Part shown: positions 15,962-44,951 of the stretch, piece after piece
How positions within the stretch are numbered: position 1 is the stretch's first letter
How the letters are laid out: each line of letters starts with the position of its first letter
Assembly: GCA_050255815.1 (NCBI GenBank)
Contig: JBLMVJ010000035.1
Coordinates: 10,727 to 74,726 of the forward strand
Direction: 5' to 3'
Origin: Candidatus Levyibacteriota bacterium
Lineage (GTDB): Bacteria; Patescibacteriota; Microgenomatia; Levybacterales; GWA1-39-11
Length of the DNA stretch: 64,000 nt
Notes under the pieces: generated by a model
What the model saw: the letters and a program-made list of their open reading frames with translations, nothing else
What the model was told of the DNA's origin: nothing
Databases searched by the model: none
Translations under genes and position numbers: made by a program

Positions 15962-17170
15962 ATGAGAATTCTTTTAATCACCCCATATTTCTATCCCCAT
16001 AAAGGGGGAAGCCAGCAGTATGCGCTGGAGCTCTATAAAACCATCATGAAGCAGAATAAAGATATTCAAGTTGATGTCCTCACCTATAACACAGACCAGT
16101 CAAAAAGTGTGGAAGAATATGAAGGGTTTACCATCTACCGTGTGCCTTGTGTCCAACTCCTGAAGGGACAATTTGCTATTCCTCATTATTGGGAGCTGAG
16201 AAAAACACTGAATAAACTATTCAGGGAAAACCGCTATACGTTTGTGAATAGCCATACGCGGTTTTTTGAAAGTTCCTGGTGGGCGCCGTATGTTGCTTCA
16301 CATTTCCATACCAAATCTATCCTGACTGACCATTGCGCAGCACATCCCACCCATAAAACTAAACTGGTTACCGGCGTGTCATACGTAATAGATAAATTCA
16401 TAGCGCCCCTGTTTTTGCAAAAATATGACTATATTACCGTGACTAATAAAGCCACCCAGGATTTCTTAAGCTCACTTATTTCAAAAGAGTCAGAGGTTAT
16501 TTATGGCGGCGTAGATACAAAACTCTTTAAACCCAGGACAAACAGGAGCAAAGAAAGAAAAATTTTAGGGATCAAAAAAAGATTTTCAAAGAATGATGTG
16601 GTGGTAGCATTTGTAGGCCGCATGATCTATTCCAAGGGTCCGCAAATACTTTTGGAAGCAGCCAAAAAAATTACAAAAAAATACCCGCGGGCATACTTTA
16701 TTTTTGGAGGAAACGGTAGCCTGTACCCTGAGCTTTCTGCCTTCCAAAATGACCATATTTTCTTTACCGGAGAGCTCACAAAAGAAGAAATATCTGACCT
16801 GTTAGCCAAGTCCGATGTCCTGGTTCATCCTTCTTTACACCATGAAGGCTTTCCAAATGTTATTTTAGAAGCAGGAGCAGCAGGCTGTGCAGTTATTGCA
16901 ACAAATATGGGCGGAACGTATGAAATTATTACCCCCAGAACCGGGATCATGGTAAAACCAACAGTTTCAGCAGTAAGCTCAAAACTGGAGCTCCTAATAA
17001 AAAATGGCTTGCAAAGACGTAAATTGGGAAACAGCCTGCATAAATGGGTAGCTGATAATTACGACTGGAAAAGGATTGCGAAGGTATACCAAAAATCCAT
17101 GCAGGAAAAGATCCGGGAAAATACGTTACTGTTCCCAACCATGCGGATGCGCTCTATACCACGTCACTAA
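15962..17170 (+). CDS. GT4-type (GT-B) glycosyltransferase
   Basis: C-terminal EGFPNVILEAGAAGCAVIATNMGG (E-x7-E type) motif. 402 aa. Confidence 0.8.
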   Translation: MRILLITPYFYPHKGGSQQYALELYKTIMKQNKDIQVDVLTYNTDQSKSVEEYEGFTIYRVPCVQLLKGQFAIPHYWELRKTLNKLFRENRYTFVNSHTRFFESSWWAPYVASHFHTKSILTDHCAAHPTHKTKLVTGVSYVIDKFIAPLFLQKYDYITVTNKATQDFLSSLISKESEVIYGGVDTKLFKPRTNRSKERKILGIKKRFSKNDVVVAFVGRMIYSKGPQILLEAAKKITKKYPRAYFIFGGNGSLYPELSAFQNDHIFFTGELTKEEISDLLAKSDVLVHPSLHHEGFPNVILEAGAAGCAVIATNMGGTYEIITPRTGIMVKPTVSAVSSKLELLIKNGLQRRKLGNSLHKWVADNYDWKRIAKVYQKSMQEKIRENTLLFPTMRMRSIPRH

Positions 17171-18133
17171 CGAGTCAATACTCTGCTCCAGCGTATGTTC
17201 CGGGCTCCATTTTAAAAGCTCTTTTGCACGCGTTATATCTGCAACCATTTTGGCATATTCACCCTGGCGCGTTTGTGATTTTTCCAAAGGCAACTGAGCA
17301 CCTGTTTTTTGCTCTACAGCTTTTATAATTTCTAGAACCGAGTTTCCGGATTCTGTCCCTATGTTCATAATTTCACTATTGCCACCATTTAAAAGATACT
17401 CAAGAGCGAGAATATGGGCATTGTTTAGGTCTACTACGTTCACATAATCCCGGATAGGTGTCTTGTCCGGTGTGTCTACCTCAGGACAGGTCAGATAGAA
17501 CGGCTCTATCCCTAAAGCACCGCGTACGGCATTCTGCATGAGGTGTACAGAAGGTTTTTTGCTGTCACCTATCATTCCGTCATCTGTTGCCCCGCAGACG
17601 TTAAAATACCGCAAAATAACGTAATTTAGGCCCTTTAATTTTCCGTACCACTCAATCATTTTCTCTGTCATACGTTTTGACTCCCCATACGGATTACTGG
17701 GGTTGGTGGGATGTTTCTCATCTATGGGAACGTACTGGGCTTCCCCATACACGGCGCAGGTGGAGGAAAAAATAATGTTTTTAATGTTACGGGAAAGCAT
17801 GGCTGCCAGAAGGACCTGGGCGGACGTAGTGTTGTTCCCAAAATATTTCTCCGGGCTTTGCATAGATTCATTTACTGAGCAATTGGCTGCATAATGGATA
17901 ACTGCCTCTATGTCCGGATTTGAATCAAGCACGTGTTCTATGTCTTTTTTGATTTCACCTTCATAGATATTCAGGTTATCGCCAAATTTTTCTTGTAATG
18001 CCTGCATTGCACCATGGAATCCCGTGGAAAAGTTATCCAGGGCCACCACCTGGTAGCCTTTTTGGAGGAATAAGTAGGCGGCTACTGACCCTATATACCC
18101 TGCTGCACCGGTAATTAATATTTTCTTTGCCAT
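17126..18133 (-). CDS. galE: UDP-glucose 4-epimerase
   Basis: ILITGAAGYIGS Rossmann motif and a YGESK catalytic motif. 335 aa. Confidence 0.85.
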   Translation of the reverse strand: MAKKILITGAAGYIGSVAAYLFLQKGYQVVALDNFSTGFHGAMQALQEKFGDNLNIYEGEIKKDIEHVLDSNPDIEAVIHYAANCSVNESMQSPEKYFGNNTTSAQVLLAAMLSRNIKNIIFSSTCAVYGEAQYVPIDEKHPTNPSNPYGESKRMTEKMIEWYGKLKGLNYVILRYFNVCGATDDGMIGDSKKPSVHLMQNAVRGALGIEPFYLTCPEVDTPDKTPIRDYVNVVDLNNAHILALEYLLNGGNSEIMNIGTESGNSVLEIIKAVEQKTGAQLPLEKSQTRQGEYAKMVADITRAKELLKWSPEHTLEQSIDSLVTWYRAHPHGWEQ

Positions 18134-18160
18134 TTGGGGTTAATTGTAGCAAATTACCAC

Positions 18161-18374
18161 AAAAAAAGCTTCCGGGTTTAACGGAGAGGGATGTTCTCCG
18201 TAAAGCCATAAAAAAACTCCTGACCCTTACGGAGAATAAGAATCCCTGCCCAAGACTCCTACTCTCCGTAACGATCAGGAGCAATGGGACATGCCCAAGA
18301 CTCCTGCTCCGATTTATCGGAGTGACTTTCTCCCTTTAAACCGGAAGCTTCAAAAAGCCCAGTATATTGGGAAA
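18161..18374 (-). ncRNA. candidate structured leader or small RNA upstream of galE
   Basis: A 15-bp long-range stem (18166-18181 with 18335-18350) encloses several hairpins and is followed on the minus strand by a U7 tract (18161-18167). A possible promoter is TTTACA (18403-18408) and TATATT (18381-18386) on the minus strand. Confidence 0.35.
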
Positions 18375-18447
18375 AACGGAAATATATTTTCGTGAAAATA
18401 GTTGTAAAAACAATCTATTTTCATCAAAATAGCTTCATCAATTTTCC

Positions 18448-18476
18448 TTGACAGGAAAATATATTTTTGCTAATTT
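18448..18476 (+). promoter_or_regulatory. sigma70-like promoter with extended -10
   Basis: TTGACA at 18448-18453, 17-nt spacer, TGc-TAATTT at 18468-18476. Confidence 0.45.
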
Positions 18477-18482
18477 TATCTC

Positions 18483-18598
18483 AAAGTACTAGTCTCACCC
18501 TGCCTAGAGACTATGTACTTATAAATTTTCTAAAAGAGCATTGCTTTTCGTACTTAAGAATTTATACAACTAGTAGCGAAAGCGATGCTCTTTTTTTT
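18483..18598 (+). ncRNA. candidate ~115-nt small RNA (promoter, 5' hairpin, intrinsic terminator)
   Basis: 5' hairpin agtactagtctc...gagactatgtact. A ~15-bp stem (18534-18550 with 18577-18592) is followed by T8 at 18591-18598. No plausible ORF. Confidence 0.35.
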
Positions 18599-19054
18599 GG
18601 TAAAGTACTGCTCTCAGAGCAAGACTACCGGAATATGTAACCCTTTTTTCAAAAGCTCCTTCAATTGCTCTTTTCCCACCTTGTCCACGGTTATCTGATA
18701 TAAATCCGTCTCAAAATTCTGCTTCTTTTTTTCTTTGGTAAACAATTTAAAGAGCTTCATAACAGATAAAGTATACCACTTCTTGTCAACTCTTTCAACC
18801 TATAGATAAACAGTCTACACCCTAGAGTTTTTAGGCATACAAAAAGGATTGTTAAATCAATGAAAAAAAATCACAGAAAAAAATGTGGATAACTTTAGGG
18901 AAAATATTTTACCTCTTGACAGAGAATGTTAACGGGTTAAAAGGTTAAGAAAATTAAAGGGTTTTAAAAAAAACGGAAAGAGTTTGGGGATAAGAAAAAT
19001 TTGAGCAAACATCCAACTCGTTAACACGTGAACACGTTAACCGGTTAATAGTTT

Positions 19055-19885
19055 TTACTCTACCATGCGGCCAAAGAAGATGCGGCCGGCATCAGTGGCT
19101 ATGACGCGGGAAACTACTACCTTTATAGTCTTATCTATGAGGTTTTCACCGTTTTCTACTACTATCATGGTACCATCAGGCAAGTACCCTACCCCCTGGT
19201 TAGGGCCTTTTCCACGTTGCACTATCTTCACAAAAAACTCTTCACCCGGAACCGCCGTAGTCTTTAAGATATTTGCCATTTCAAACAAATCTATAGACGT
19301 GGCACCGGTTATCCGGGCTTTTTTAGAGAGGTTGTAGTCACATGTAATAATCCGTCCACGGGTCTTTCTGGCATAGCCAATAATCCGTTCATCTACCGGC
19401 TTTTTTCCGTCCTCATCATCTACGTTTAGCATCTTTACCCCGCGCATCTTCCGGAAATCCTCCAGGCTCTTTAAAGCGTTCCTGCCACGTTCTTTTTTAA
19501 CGTCATCTTTAGAATCCGCAATGTTCTTTAATTCATCTAAAACACCGGAAAGGATGACGAAATTACCAATAAATACGCCAATTTTTACCAGGTCAAACAC
19601 GCGGCCGTCTATAATAGCGGATGTATCCAGAATAAAACCGGGATCTTCTTTTTCTTTACTTGACCGTTTTCTGGAAGCAGGCCTGGGGACACTCTGGACT
19701 ACCCGCTTTGCTACTTCTTCAGCAATCTGGGCAACTACTTTAGGCGGAAGTAAAATGCCCTGCACTGCCTGGCGCGCTATCCCACGCGCATTTTTATTAG
19801 ACACTATCACTTCTGGGATCTCCTCCGTGCTTTTACGAGGTTTTTTTACTGCTGTTTTTTTTGTGGATGATTTCTTAACTGCCAT
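19055..19885 (-). CDS. PIN/TRAM domain protein (YacL-like)
   Basis: Basic N-terminus, PIN-like ILDTSAIIDGR, and a C-terminal TRAM-like barrel. Sits downstream of radA, as in Firmicutes. Confidence 0.75.
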   Translation of the reverse strand: MAVKKSSTKKTAVKKPRKSTEEIPEVIVSNKNARGIARQAVQGILLPPKVVAQIAEEVAKRVVQSVPRPASRKRSSKEKEDPGFILDTSAIIDGRVFDLVKIGVFIGNFVILSGVLDELKNIADSKDDVKKERGRNALKSLEDFRKMRGVKMLNVDDEDGKKPVDERIIGYARKTRGRIITCDYNLSKKARITGATSIDLFEMANILKTTAVPGEEFFVKIVQRGKGPNQGVGYLPDGTMIVVENGENLIDKTIKVVVSRVIATDAGRIFFGRMVE

Positions 19886-33719: not shown

Positions 33720-34000
33720 TCAAGAGCAAAACCGGTAAGATCCGAATCTACTCGAATAGTTTGGGGTAACTTCTAGGCTACCCCATTCTTCTCGAATATT
33801 TCGAATTAACATTAACAAACACTAGCGCATTCGAATTGATTCGATTTAAATTCGAACCATTCGAGAATGATTTCTTAGAATCCACGCTATTTGGATCGAC
33901 CTATTAGTACAACTTCGCTGAAACAGTTACCTGTCTTACACGTGTTGCCTATCAACCTGATGGTCTCTCAGGGGTCTAAAAGAGATCTTATCTTAGGGTG

Positions 34001-34033
<33 letters not shown>

Positions 34034-34268
34034 CATGGAAATCTAGCTACCCAGCAGTGCACTTGTAAGTACAACTGGCACACCAGGGATTTCCTCACCC
34101 CAGTCCTCTCGTACTAGGGGCGACTCCCTTCAAATCTCAAACGGTTGTCCTGGATAGAGTCCGAACTGTCTTACGACGTTCTTAACCCAGCTCGCGTACC
34201 TTTTTAACTGGCGAACAGCCAGACGCTTGGGAGCTTCTCCACCCCCGCGCTAAGATGAGCCGACATCG

Positions 34269-34698
34269 CTGTCAATCCAATCAGTAATTAAGAAAGACTT
34301 AAAAACTTAAAACTGATGGTGATACTCTTGTTACCAAGAGCCTCTGACTATACCTTCATCCGCCAACTGGCGGAGCTAGTCGTATGATACAGATTATAAA
34401 TTTCTCTTTATGAGATGAATCCATATCTCACCCTCTCACCTATGCTGGTGAGGGGTTCAGTCGATAGGGTCCAAAAGAAATTTAAAATTCAGAAGTTAAA
34501 ATTCAGAATTAAATTCTTAATTCTGAAATCTGAATTCTTAACTCTATTTGAACCTCGGTATTACCCTCTTGTGTTCAGAAAGTAGGGTTTCACCGATTTG
34601 GACTAGTTATTTAAATTATTAGTACCTTGTTTTTTGACTCAAATACTAATAAATACAGGCAAGAGTATTACTACTCAGGCGCCCCGATATTTTCATAT
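34269..34698 (-). mobile_element. group I-type intron (430 nt, no ORF) after the E. coli U2500 equivalent
   Basis: Exon junction is GGCACCU | CGAUGUCGGCUC. The 5' exon ends in U and the intron ends in G. GATGAAGGTATAGTC (reverse complement of 34346-34360) resembles the group I J8/7-P7 core. Confidence 0.7.
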
Positions 34699-34742
34699 AA
34701 GGTGCCAAACCGCATCGTCGCTGTGGACGCTTGGATGCGATC

Positions 34743-34775
<33 letters not shown>

Positions 34776-35230
34776 AAGCTACGTCCCAACCACTAAGGAA
34801 CGCAGGATCACTAACACCTGCTTTCGCACCTGCTCGACTTGTAGGTCTCGCAGTCAAGCTGGCTTGTGCGTTTGCACAATACGCTCCGATTTCCGTCCGG
34901 AGTTAGCCAACCTTTGTACGCCTCCGTTGCACTTTAGGAGGCAACCTCCCCAGTTAAACTGCCCACCAGACACTGTCTTTTAGCCGTATTTTTATGCGGC
35001 ATTAAAGTAATGCTCACTCATCTTAAAGAGAGGTATTTCATTGATGACCGAAGTCTCCCTCCTATACTAAACAGTTAAAATAAGCTTGCAAATGTCAAGC
35101 TACAGTAAAGCTCCCGGGGTCTTTTTGTCCTAGGACAACCAGGCCGCGTCTTCACAGCCATCTCAATTTCGCCGTGTAAATGTTCAAGACAGTTACTCAG
35201 TCGTTCTACCTTTCGTGCGGGTCGGAACTC

Positions 35231-35548
35231 CATTGTTTTAATGTTCCAACATGGAACCTCACAGTCGCCTGTGAGATCGGACTATATCTTTCCCTTACCA
35301 AATTGGTGAGGGATCTAGCGTCTAGTCTCTGAGGGTTTTCCGATAAATCGGAATCTTCCCTGCTGATTGGCTCCACCAAGCAGATTTTTACTCTTACGAG
35401 TACTGTTGGATACTGAGCTGTTCCAGCAAATAGCTAGATTTTACACTCATTTAGGTTAACGATTGTGTTCTTACGTGACTGTTTTGCTTGTTCCTGATGT
35501 GTATCCCGATTAGATCGGGACTCGGGCAAGTTGATTTGACCCAAACCA
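35231..35548 (-). mobile_element. group I-type intron (~318 nt, no ORF) after the E. coli U1951 equivalent
   Basis: Exon junction is UCCUUGUCGGGU | (G)AGUUCCGACC. The 5' exon ends in U and the intron ends in G. AAGATATAGTCC (reverse complement of 35279-35290) and GAGACTAGACG core-like motifs are present. Confidence 0.65.
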
Positions 35549-36885
35549 ACCCGACAAGGAACTTCGCTACCATAGAACAGTTATAGTTACTGCTGCCGTT
35601 CACCGGAGCTTTAGAAAGCGGCTCCACCTTGCGGTTTCACCACCCACTATTGACTTACCGGCACTGGGCAGGTGTCAGCCCCTATACGTTACCTTTCGGT
35701 TTTGCAGGGACCTGTGTTTTAGATAAACAGTCGCTAAGTAATCTTTTGCTTAACCTGGATGTTACTCCAGGCAGGGCATCTCCCATAGGTTACGCCCAGC
35801 TTTTGTTGCCGAGTTCCTTGAACATTTGTCTCACGGTCGCCTTAGTCTACTCGACCAATCCACCTGTGTCGGTTATGCGGTACGGCAAAATATAGCACTC
35901 CTCACGAATCTTTTCCTGAAGACTGAAACTTACGATCCTCACCCTACTTTCTTGCGATTTCAGATTTGCATTCGCCACTTAATTAAACACTTTGACGGAT
36001 TTGCCCATCAAAACTATCTTATGGCTTGGACCCTGTTTACAGGGCGATCCTTTCCACTCTTGTCCATCCTTGAGTAATAACGCACTATACTCTGTAGCAG
36101 AATATTAACTGCTTGTCCATCCGGCTACCCCGCGCTTTATGACGGGCCACCGTTAGGAGCCGACTAACGCTGCGCTGACTTACATTGCGCAGCAAACCTT
36201 GGATTTTCGGCGGACGCCGTTCTCAGGCGTCATTCGCTACTCATGCCGGCATTCTCACTTGTAAACGCTCCACCATACCTTACAGTACAGCTTCGCTGCA
36301 TTTACGACGCTCCCCTACCACTTGCTCCGATAAATCGGAGTCAAATCTCCATCGTCGGTATTAAGCTTAATCCTCGATCATTTCCGGCGCCATTCTCCAA
36401 TGTCGACTAGTGAGCTGTTACGCTTTCTTTAAAGGATGGCTGCTTCTGAGCCAACCTCCTAGCTGTCTATGGAAAATGACTTCCTTATCAACTTAGCTTA
36501 AATTTAGAGACCTTAGATGGGAGTCTGGGCTGTTTCCCTTTAGACCCACGAGCTTAGCCCCGCAAGTCTGACTCTCTATTAAGTTTTTACGGTATTCGGA
36601 GTTTGATTGATCCTGAAAAGTTGCCTCTCCAGAGACCATTCAGTGCTCTACCCCCGTAAAAACATACAAAAGGCTATACCAAAATATATTTCGGGGAGAA
36701 CCAGCTATCTCCAGGTTCGTTTAGTATGTCACCCCTTACCACAAGTCGTCTCAGATCATTGCTGCGATCACGAGTTCGGGCCTTCCTCATCCTTTCGAAC
36801 AAGTTCACCCTGCTCATGGTAAGCTCACCTGGTTTCGGGTCTTTTGCAATGCGCATTTAGGTATCCCAGTTAGAGATCGCTTTCA

Positions 36886-36992
36886 CTATGCCTCCCCCCT
36901 CACCTTTCCAACGAAAATTCCAACCTTTGTTTTAAATCGAGCTTGTTTCGATAATATTTCAAAGTGGTAATCCTCATTAGAATGGTGAGGGG
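36886..36992 (-). other. 107-nt stem-closed expansion/insertion in the 23S domain II helix-25 region
   Basis: Closed by cccctcacc (36886-36894) pairing with ggtgagggg (36984-36992). Absent from the E. coli and B. subtilis sequence as I recall it. Confidence 0.5.
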
Positions 36993-37360
36993 TTAGACTG
37001 CGCAATACAAAAACTCACCGGCTCATTCTTCAATAGGCACGACGTTATACCCTTGCGGGCACTTCGTCTGCTTGTTAGCTAATAGTTTCAGTAACTCTTT
37101 CATTCCCCTCCCGGGGTGCTTTTCACCTTTCCCTCGCGGTACTAGTTCACTATCGGTAGATGTTGATATTTAGCTTTGGAGCGTGGTCGCCCCGGCTTCC
37201 CACAGGGTTTAATCGTACCCCATGGTACTCAGGAACAGGCAAGAAGTGAAAATCATTTCAAATACGGGACTATCACCCTCTTTGGTCTCTTTTTCCAAAA
37301 CGTTCTTCTATGATTTCCATTTGTGACTTCTTTTGCATTTAAGCAAGCCGTCCTACAACC

Positions 37361-37660
37361 CCCCTCACCTTTTTATCACTAACCTTTTTAAAAGTTCTTG
37401 CCAAGCTTTTGCGCGCTTCTTAAGCGCCTGCTCTCTTCTAAAAGCTAATTTATAAGAAGTATATGCTTCATAATAAATAAGCTCCCATGGCAAAAACTTT
37501 TTAGTATATATAGACTTTCCTTTATTATGGTCCGTAAATCGAGTTTTAAGATCTTTTGTTGAACCAATATAAAACTGGTCGAACTTTACACTCTTAAGAA
37601 TATACGTGTAGAACATAAGTCTATTATAGTTATTTAAGTTAGGAACAAAAAGGTGAGGGG
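37361..37660 (-). mobile_element. 300-nt stem-closed intervening sequence in 23S domain I carrying a GIY-YIG ORF
   Basis: Perfect 10-bp closing stem: cccctcacct (37361-37370) with aggtgagggg (37651-37660). It replaces the short hairpin that follows ...CAGCYCAAACC in other bacteria. Confidence 0.6.
37365..37616 (-). CDS. small GIY-YIG (URI-domain, COG2827/YhbQ-like) nuclease encoded inside the 23S insertion
   Basis: MFYTYILKS...FYIGSTKDLKTRFTDHN...E...ALKREQALKK pattern. Same orientation as the rRNA. The stop codon lies within the closing stem. Confidence 0.8.
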   Translation of the reverse strand: MFYTYILKSVKFDQFYIGSTKDLKTRFTDHNKGKSIYTKKFLPWELIYYEAYTSYKLAFRREQALKKRAKAWQELLKRLVIKR

Positions 37661-38003
37661 TTTGAGCTGTTCCGCGTTCGCTCGCCGCTACTGACGGAAT
37701 CTCTGTGATTTCTTTTCCTCGGACTACTTAGATGTTTCAGTTGGTCCGGTATCCCGCCGACTACTAATATATTAATCTTGCGACTAATAACTTCATAGCA
37801 GGCTCCCAGTTAAACTGGGGGGTTTCCCCATTCGGACACCACCGGATCATAATGTCTTCGGCCATTCCCCGGTGATTTTCGCGAGCCAGATGCGTCCTTC
37901 TTCGGTCAACACCTCCTAGGCATCCACTATTAGCATGAATCAAATAGCGTAGATTCTAAAAAACCAATTCATTAAAAACCATGCCTCGGCTTGAAACATG
38001 GAA

Positions 38004-44884: not shown

Positions 44885-44951
44885 AGGCGCGCAGTTCCGA
44901 TTTATCGGAACGAGCACCGCAAAGCTTAATACATTTTGAATATAATCAAAA

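Follow-up and report, generated by a model that had tools for sequence, protein, structure and literature searches.

Among the described bacterial loci that come closest to the one analysed here are those type I toxin–antitoxin (TA) systems whose two units share a bidirectional terminator, for example RNA II/Fst of the pAD1 par locus and SR4/BsrG and RatA/TxpA of Bacillus subtilis. We analysed a stretch of 64,000 nucleotides (the window) from a Candidatus Levyibacteriota bacterium (assembly GCA_050255815.1, contig JBLMVJ010000035.1, positions 10,727 to 74,726 of the forward strand), in which, as in these systems, a candidate small RNA (sRNA) with its own predicted promoter is convergent to a tiny open reading frame (ORF), the two meeting at one terminator hairpin; likewise, a contact between hairpin loops is what we propose as the first step of RNA–RNA recognition. 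Levybacteria are uncultivated bacteria of the Microgenomates group within the Patescibacteria, or candidate phyla radiation (CPR), whose tiny genomes hold few recognisable regulators, and to our knowledge almost nothing is known about RNA-based regulation in CPR bacteria. Here we describe the plus-strand candidate sRNA, termed R, together with a divergent predicted RNA on the minus strand, termed L, whose loop is complementary to a loop of R.

Promoter, fold and terminator of the predicted RNA R

A preliminary description of the window, made from its letters alone, had placed R in the gap at 18134–19054 and had credited it with a canonical promoter, a 12-bp 5′ hairpin and an intrinsic terminator. 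As delimited in our analysis, its elements are as follows.

18448–18453, plus strand: −35 hexamer TTGACA of R (family consensus TTTTTCTTGACAA; invariant in the alignment of genome loci)
18468–18476, plus strand: extended −10 element TGcTAATTT of R, after a 17-nt spacer (family consensus TGnTAnnnT)
18483–18598, plus strand: predicted R transcript, about 113–116 nt, from the fold and the covariance model
18484–18520, plus strand: hairpin 1, 13 bp with one bulged U; arms 18484–18496 and 18507–18520, loop ACCCUGCCUA
18499–18504, plus strand: invariant loop motif CCUGCC, in the apical loop of hairpin 1
18532–18594, plus strand: hairpin 2, stem of about 20 bp with near-invariant sequence, predicted intrinsic terminator of R
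18591–18598, plus strand: T8 tract ending the terminator; the U-run is kept in most members

All promoter elements lie where they had been placed and are conserved, although the word canonical slightly overstated the case, since the −10 hexamer TAATTT matches TATAAT at only three of six positions, a weakness offset by the extended TG. For the same reason the promoter was not listed by a simple scan. We therefore describe it as a predicted sigma-70-type promoter of the extended −10 (TGn) kind that is not fully canonical. What argues for its reality is its conservation, as the arrangement CTTGACA-17-TGnTAnnnT, preceded by (T)n, recurs in every one of the 77 distinct upstream regions, always equally far from hairpin 1.

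Downstream of the promoter, R consists of a 5′ hairpin, a short linker, and hairpin 2 with its U-run. The 116-nt sequence 18483–18598 folded with −40.6 kcal/mol as compared with −17.7 ± 2.8 kcal/mol for dinucleotide shuffles (z = −8.1), and none of 200 shuffles folded as well. The terminator had been proposed as a stem of about 15 bp (18534–18550 with 18577–18592) followed by T8; both parts are present and conserved, with the stem measuring about 20 bp, and a simple terminator scan missed it because its loop is longer than the scan allows. Hairpin 2 folded better on the plus strand in 55 of 57 sequences owing to the asymmetry between G–U and A–C pairs, and these G–U pairs therefore support the plus strand as the transcribed one. 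Read from the minus strand, the hairpin is less stable, and most members have no U-run there.

To describe the family, a covariance model (R1) was built from 14 cleanly aligned members with the structure written by hand, after which all members were re-aligned to it. An Infernal search with such a model from homologous loci had been suggested as a check in the preliminary description; R1 recovered 18485–18597 with 69.3 bits (E = 1e-12), matched nothing else on the R strand across the 64 kb, and found one copy per locus. On the alignment made with R1, 96.8% of the cells of hairpin 1 pair, compared with 40–52% when the partners are slid, 12 of its 13 pairs are compensatory, and 147 cells are changed on both sides as against 33.6 in shuffles, with none of 500 shuffles reaching any of the observed measures. 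This alignment is fitted to the model; sequences folded singly give the same hairpin, which, with CCUGCC in its apical loop, formed in all 74 distinct members despite widely differing stems. In the MAFFT alignment hairpin 1 was out of register, and RNAalifold missed it there. Thus, the claimed 5′ hairpin is present, conserved and covarying, with 13 bp and one bulge instead of 12 bp.

These features also bear on the possibility that there is no separate sRNA and that the hairpins are signals at the level of the DNA or of mRNA ends, such as the terminator of the small-protein gene, operators, or part of an origin with DnaA boxes. Such a reading could draw on the position of hairpin 2 immediately 3′ of the small ORF, on a conserved perfect DnaA box about 290 nt away, and on the palindromes upstream of the R promoter. 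It would not account for a full promoter conserved in all members at a fixed distance from hairpin 1, nor for the G–U versus A–C asymmetry that assigns hairpin 2 to the plus strand; moreover, the compensatory changes in hairpin 1 are not expected of operators, and there are only one perfect and one near-perfect DnaA box, with no dnaA nearby and no GC-skew switch. We consider this reading extremely improbable.

Two further candidates were rejected. The region had been said to lack any ORF beyond a few codons, which is not strictly correct, because a 57-codon ORF with a TTG start (18467–18640, plus strand) covers it. A frame without stops exists in only 17 of 74 family members, and R lengths across the family (105–119 nt) vary out of frame; a protein or peptide encoded by R was ruled out because the reading frame is not conserved. 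A cis-regulatory leader or riboswitch was ruled out because no gene on the same strand follows R at any locus, the next gene always being convergent.

Conservation and range of the R family

Most of the family came from a metagenome scan with the exact pattern of the two arms of hairpin 2, which gave 94 loci, one of them (L062) a chance match in coding sequence. Altogether, genomes and metagenomes of Levybacteria supplied about 100 loci with the R unit, which represent 74 distinct R sequences; contigs L042, L072, L098 and L099, for instance, come from Hainich groundwater, peat and aquifer samples. The preliminary description had held that R would be in doubt if its promoter and terminator were not conserved in related genomes; both are conserved across about 100 related loci. 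In addition, when loci were fetched through the neighbouring small protein and not through the DNA pattern, six out of six carried R, convergent and directly after the ORF. In five Levybacteria genome loci the DNA at 18380–18607 is 75–85% identical, whereas the adjoining PIN/TRAM protein shows only 59–77% identity.

As for the range of the family, a search with R1 near PIN/TRAM homologues of other phyla gave no match. Comparison of the gap with Rfam 15 at E ≤ 10 returned only sub-threshold hairpin look-alikes, the best scoring 30.5 bits where 54 are required, and 15 related loci gave no Rfam match at all, which rules out a known RNA family. Similarly, an origin from a mobile element, phage or plasmid was ruled out, as phage, plasmid and IMG/VR collections held no similarity to the module, and in the literature we found no description of such RNAs. 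6S RNA, which forms a rod of some 180 nt opened by a large central bubble, and SRP RNA, whose domain IV has internal loops and a GNRA tetraloop, were also rejected, since R has about 113 nt and two separate hairpins, the main hairpin of L (described below) is a perfect duplex of 20–30 bp, and there is no Rfam signal. R thus represents a new family of an otherwise familiar kind of sRNA, restricted, as far as sampled, to Levybacteria/Microgenomates.

Taken together, the conserved promoter, the covarying hairpin 1 and the strand-specific terminator make it very probable that R is a real, independently transcribed small non-coding RNA gene. It is also likely to be abundant and important for Levybacteria cells, because its DNA is conserved above the level of the neighbouring proteins, its promoter looks strong, and its loop and terminator stem are invariant through a whole phylum-level clade.

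The divergent predicted RNA L

The preliminary description had seen two back-to-back RNA candidates in the gap, and the second of them was upheld by our analysis of the minus strand.

18161–18419, minus strand: predicted RNA L, about 260 nt in the window, with a 22-bp closing stem; boundaries predicted
18226–18270, minus strand: main L hairpin, whose loop UUGGGCAGG is the complement of 18245–18253
18426–18454, minus strand: promoter-like site of L, CTGTCA-17-TATTTT, its −35 overlapping the −35 of R on the other strand

The minus strand of 18150–18432 folded with −113 kcal/mol (z = −8.5), and a T7 run (18161–18167) follows the closing stem on that strand. Written on the strand opposite to R, the core of the main hairpin reads ...GGUAGGAGnn-UUGGGCAGG-nnCUCUUACC..., and in 64 out of 64 sequences it is the better fold on the minus strand (−23.8 versus −14.5 kcal/mol), the other strand having many G–U pairs turned into A–C. 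In a gapless alignment not fitted to the structure, 98.5% of the cells are paired and 11 of 12 pairs are compensatory. About 72 of 77 loci keep L beside R, and L has no match in Rfam.

In the genome of the window the L locus is expanded by the closing stem and by a degenerate second copy of the loop, UUGGGCAUG, the complement of 18290–18298. In roughly 28 of about 85 loci the longer forms of L contain additional copies of GGCAGG; L carries one to three copies of the loop motif. The promoter-like site has the family form TTGTCA-17-TAAAAN, back-to-back with the R promoter; of 77 loci, 65 have a TTGTCA −35 and 46 a −10-like hexamer spaced by 16–18 nt, and a T-run comes after the hairpin in 36 of 72. 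On account of the last two figures, the boundaries of L are less certain than those of R.

Palindromes at 18385–18431 (TATTTTCGTGAAAATAG, CTATTTTCATCAAAATA), upstream of the R promoter, differ on both arms between genomes, with a variant CTAATTA...TAATTAG in L001 and L002; lying in the predicted 5′ part of L, they could be RNA stems or operator sites. We also observed that metagenome contig ends cluster between L and R, about 150–300 nt upstream of hairpin 2 (loci L026–L119): 18 contigs stop in the 300 nt that precede hairpin 2, compared with roughly 5–7 per 300-nt bin farther out. This pile-up may come from strain-level rearrangement or from variability of L.

Complementarity of the R and L loops

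The R loop motif CCUGCC and the L loop motif GGCAGG are both invariant, and they are complementary because the two motifs are the same on one DNA strand but are read from opposite strands. Six Watson–Crick pairs are thereby available, and typically 9–10 contiguous ones; the 9-nt L loop UUGGGCAGG can pair end to end with CCUGCCURA of R. In the window, 10 contiguous pairs are possible between CCCUGCCUAG of R (18498–18507) and UUGGGCAGGG of L, and the apical duplex is predicted at −18.9 kcal/mol as compared with −10.1 ± 2.8 kcal/mol for shuffled L, 6 of 2000 shuffles being as good. The chance of a shared complementary hexamer in conserved loops of 9 and 12 nt is below about 0.01 (an estimate, from 28 window pairs × 4^−6). 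Three additional pairs are possible in 40 of 56 locus pairs. Pairing that goes on 5′ of the core is commoner within loci than after L was permuted among loci, the summed extension being 32 as against 22.9 ± 3.4, with 32 reached in 14 of 2000 permutations; as no correction for phylogeny is made, this is weak support.

Exact complements to R of at least 10 nt within the window were AT-rich chance matches only, and prediction of a full-length R–L duplex was uninformative. A direct repeat (D3) between the 5′ end of R and the 3′ untranslated region of the small ORF, complementary at 13 of 15 positions in the window, is not conserved in L001–L005 and was taken as chance, and 7 nt in the 5′ arm of hairpin 2 that are complementary to codons 2–4 of the small ORF in the window have no counterpart in other loci.

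On this basis R may be a base-pairing riboregulator that uses its exposed C-rich loop, with the G-rich loop UUGGGCAGG of L as the likeliest partner and a loop–loop 'kissing' contact as the start of their pairing. R would perhaps also overlap, as an antisense RNA, with the 3′ end of the small-protein mRNA, since the terminator hairpin sits just 3′ of the stop codon of that gene. What the module sets would probably be how much of the small basic protein, or of R and L themselves, is present. We judge it evenly balanced whether R acts by pairing through CCUGCC, and the R gene and the loop-pairing mechanism, taken together, we give an even chance; that L is the physiological partner is a more tentative proposal, which we place below even.

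Several observations weigh against R acting in this way. The CCUGCC and GGCAGG cores never vary, so the contact between R and L does not lend itself to a true covariation test. The hexamer in itself is not specific, CCTGCC occurring 52 times in the window. In five loci (L033, L070, L095, L105 and L115) position 2 of the L loop is changed from U to A with no compensation in R, and therefore only 6–7 R–L pairs are supported. The signal from permuting L among loci takes no account of phylogeny. L itself raises doubts, because its promoter (46/77) and terminator (36/72) are only moderately conserved, and because one locus (L097) keeps R while the L hairpin is absent. The use of an exact pattern on the arms of hairpin 2 inflates the invariance of that stem across most of the family. 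Loci that were sampled without the DNA pattern nevertheless show that hairpin 2 is truly conserved in sequence: of the six found through the small protein, five had hairpin 2 read, and three of these have a single substitution (G–C to G–U in two cases) and two have none. Neither a terminator role nor loop pairing explains this near-invariance, which points to an additional partner of R, possibly a protein; the constraint may stem from such a protein or from the 3′ end of the small-protein mRNA, which R would overlap.

The convergent gene for a small basic protein

The preliminary description had mentioned an unlisted 48-codon ORF on the minus strand of the gap, and it proved to belong to a conserved protein family.

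18614–18760, minus strand: gene for a 48-residue basic protein, convergent with R
18770–18798, minus strand: strong predicted promoter of the small-protein gene, TTGAAA-17-TGgTATACT (conserved form in related loci TTGACA-17-TGnTAAAAT)

The ATG lies 10 nt after the −10 element, and the mRNA would therefore be nearly leaderless. The protein is identical to the NCBI hypothetical protein ACM3IJ_04580 of a Candidatus Levyibacteriota bacterium, and a homologous small ORF is found at the same position in nearly all loci, with the consensus MKxF..KK...DYKQExLxKQGREQFKKLxEKGLxxPVVLL. A search with the single sequence returned only the protein itself, and phmmer against 1.84 billion representatives gave nine weak matches, while a profile search of the protein database yielded 374 clusters, all unnamed or 'hypothetical', the named sources being Levybacteria or 'Patescibacteria group'. 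None of the 374 clusters carries a Pfam domain, and comparison with Pfam and with the sequences of the PDB gave spurious matches only, with no RNA-binding family, solved structure or similarity to Rop among them. The protein has a GRAVY of −0.35 and a net charge of about +7, and, as the highest 19-residue hydropathy is 0.2–0.6 across 88 homologues, it has no membrane segment. In the AlphaFold model it forms one helix, at residues 16–38, with a pLDDT of 70.

The stop codon of the small ORF lies 6–170 nt from hairpin 2, often directly abutting it, so that the hairpin is common to both units. With this layout, R might chiefly be a cis-encoded antisense RNA of the convergent gene, controlling the stability or translation of its mRNA through an overlap at the shared bidirectional terminator. 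The convergent order in nearly all loci, including the six out of six sampled independently, speaks for such a role, as does the fact that the small ORF and R stay together when the outer neighbours change, and the invariance of hairpin 2 could then reflect constraint from both transcripts. Against it stand the weaker minus-strand form of hairpin 2, mostly without a U-run, and the consideration that, if hairpin 2 terminates both transcripts, the overlap amounts to the hairpin alone; moreover, such a role would not explain why hairpin 1 has an invariant loop or why L is conserved. With respect to a type I TA system in particular, the hydrophilic, basic protein with no membrane segment is not a classical type I toxin, and a single-copy module, syntenic beside housekeeping genes and absent from plasmids, phages and IMG/VR, is unusual for TA loci. 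An antisense role as the chief function of R therefore appears unlikely to us.

The small protein also raises the question of whether R, and perhaps L, is mainly a protein-binding RNA, with hairpin 2 and the loops as recognition sites, for example for the adjacent basic protein. Such a protein might chaperone or stabilise a kissing complex, as Rop does in ColE1; alternatively, the RNA might serve as a decoy like CsrB. This would fit the conservation of hairpin 2 in sequence and not in structure alone, the GAAnUUAU core conserved in its loop, the gene for a very basic, helical 48-residue protein that always accompanies R, and the one to three copies of the same loop motif in L. The small protein has, however, no homology to RNA-binding families or solved structures, and its AlphaFold model, a single helix of moderate confidence, is silent on binding. 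In addition, CCUGCC and GGCAGG could not both be read by one sequence-specific site, and RNA–RNA pairing explains their complementarity better. We regard protein binding as the main function of R as quite unlikely, and retain loop pairing as the preferred mechanism.

A DnaA box and the order of the module

Upstream of the small-protein gene lies the last recurrent element of the locus.

18884–18892, minus strand: perfect DnaA box TTATCCACA, with about 90 nt between it and the small-protein promoter downstream

No other DnaA box in the 64 kb is perfect; one with a single mismatch lies at 18985–18993. In 76 of 96 loci the perfect box recurs in the corresponding place. An oriC was ruled out here, given one perfect and one single-mismatch box, a skew that is negative throughout the window, and the absence of dnaA among the neighbours. 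Between the DnaA box and the small-protein promoter we noted conserved blocks that read, on the ORF strand, AAATCAATCTAAA, TTTACTCTAGGnCTA and CTATAGG; a conserved CCTCTTGACA at 18913–18922 (plus strand) has no obvious −10.

In the usual order, S1, RadA and PIN/TRAM are followed by L on the opposite strand, R on the same strand, and the small ORF on the opposite strand. In the window and in L001, L002, L004 and L060, the whole module (L, R, small ORF and DnaA box) is inverted relative to S1–RadA–PIN/TRAM, and in some loci the outer neighbours are different genes while the small ORF, R and L are still together. The association of these three thus outlasts changes in what surrounds them, and the module moves as a unit. 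Judged by this order across loci, R sits in a fixed module with the divergent predicted RNA L, the convergent gene for a protein of about 48 residues, and a DnaA box upstream.

We also entertained a more far-reaching interpretation, in which R, L and the 48-residue protein form one self-contained RNA–RNA–protein switch that is specific to Levybacteria and wired to DnaA. The back-to-back promoters with overlapping −35 elements would make transcription of R and of L mutually exclusive, the two RNAs would meet by a kissing-loop contact, and the helical protein would either act on the complex in the manner of Rop or be the regulated output; the DnaA box would tie the unit to the state of replication or of the cell cycle, in organisms that seemingly are without the usual sRNA chaperones. 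At present we see this switch as an improbable conjecture.

Other features of the window

The gap that holds the module had been called the longest non-coding stretch of the window outside rRNA, and this was borne out: apart from the rRNA operon, 18134–19054 is the longest ORF-free stretch in the 64 kb. Its borders are as follows.

17126–18133, minus strand: gene for a GalE-like epimerase, on the left of the gap
19055–19885, minus strand: PIN/TRAM gene, on the right of the gap

The PIN/TRAM protein of the window is 59–77% identical to proteins of Levybacteria metagenome-assembled genomes. Just beyond the 3′ end of its gene, at 19015–19046, lie three tandem 8-nt units (AACTCGTT/AACACGTG/AACACGTT/AACCGGTT) with many GTTAAC-like palindromes.

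Across the window, Rfam at gathering thresholds identified 23S and 5S rRNAs, a group I intron and a tRNA, and nothing else, and ARAGORN found tRNA-Ala as the sole tRNA. The 23S rRNA gene (33883–37949, minus strand) has 4067 nt as against 2925 positions in the Rfam model, and the group I intron match (35258–35526, 80.5 bits) lies inside it; the length of the gene hints at additional insertions. A 16-nt palindromic hairpin, (C/T)TCCGATAAATCGGA(G/A), is present in four copies where 0.02 are expected.

18307–18322, 35338–35353, 36325–36340 and 44895–44910: copies of the 16-nt palindrome

One of these copies is in L, and two are in the region of the 23S rRNA gene, where the group I intron match contains one of them; the fourth lies elsewhere.

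Comparison with known systems

With an sRNA gene, a second RNA of complementary loop, a tiny basic protein and a DnaA box, the locus makes a compact and testable module, and its interest would grow if the R–L contact or the link to DnaA were shown. The covariance model and the alignments can be used for annotating the R family, for example through a submission to Rfam.

The likeness to type I TA systems with which we began does not extend to their contents. Their ORFs encode a hydrophobic membrane peptide, whereas the product here is hydrophilic and strongly basic; they are patchy, multicopy or mobile in distribution, whereas this module has a single copy per locus, keeps its synteny, is inherited vertically throughout a phylum-level clade and is not mobile; and the complementary loop is here on a third transcript, L, and not on the mRNA of the ORF. 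Since both the hydrophobic toxin and the patchy distribution are absent, we do not assign the module to type I TA systems.

With RNA I/RNA II and Rop (Rom) of ColE1, the locus has in common complementary apical loops, here on predicted stable hairpins, an adjacent gene for a tiny helical protein and a nearby DnaA box. RNA I and RNA II, however, are antisense to each other, whereas R and L are divergent and do not overlap, their complementarity being confined to the loops and hence no by-product of antisense transcription. Unlike ColE1, the setting here is chromosomal, with no sign of an origin and no GC-skew switch, and, in contrast to the helix-loop-helix of Rop, the small protein is predicted to form one helix and has no similarity to Rop.

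In its build R resembles RsaE/RoxS and other Rsa RNAs of Gram-positive bacteria, which likewise have about 100 nt, their own promoter, an intrinsic terminator and a C-rich loop as the likely seed. RsaE/RoxS carries several CCC/UCCC motifs, whereas R has a single CCUGCC, shares no homology with it, and gives no Rfam match to it at E ≤ 10; moreover, the GGCAGG complementary to R is not a Shine–Dalgarno sequence. Finally, with its one to three copies of a motif complementary to the R loop, L resembles sponge and decoy RNAs such as SroC, which acts on GcvB, and CsrB/RsmZ. We know of no sponge that is encoded back-to-back with its target from overlapping −35 elements, as L and R are predicted to be, and the likeness of L to these RNAs lies in its layout.

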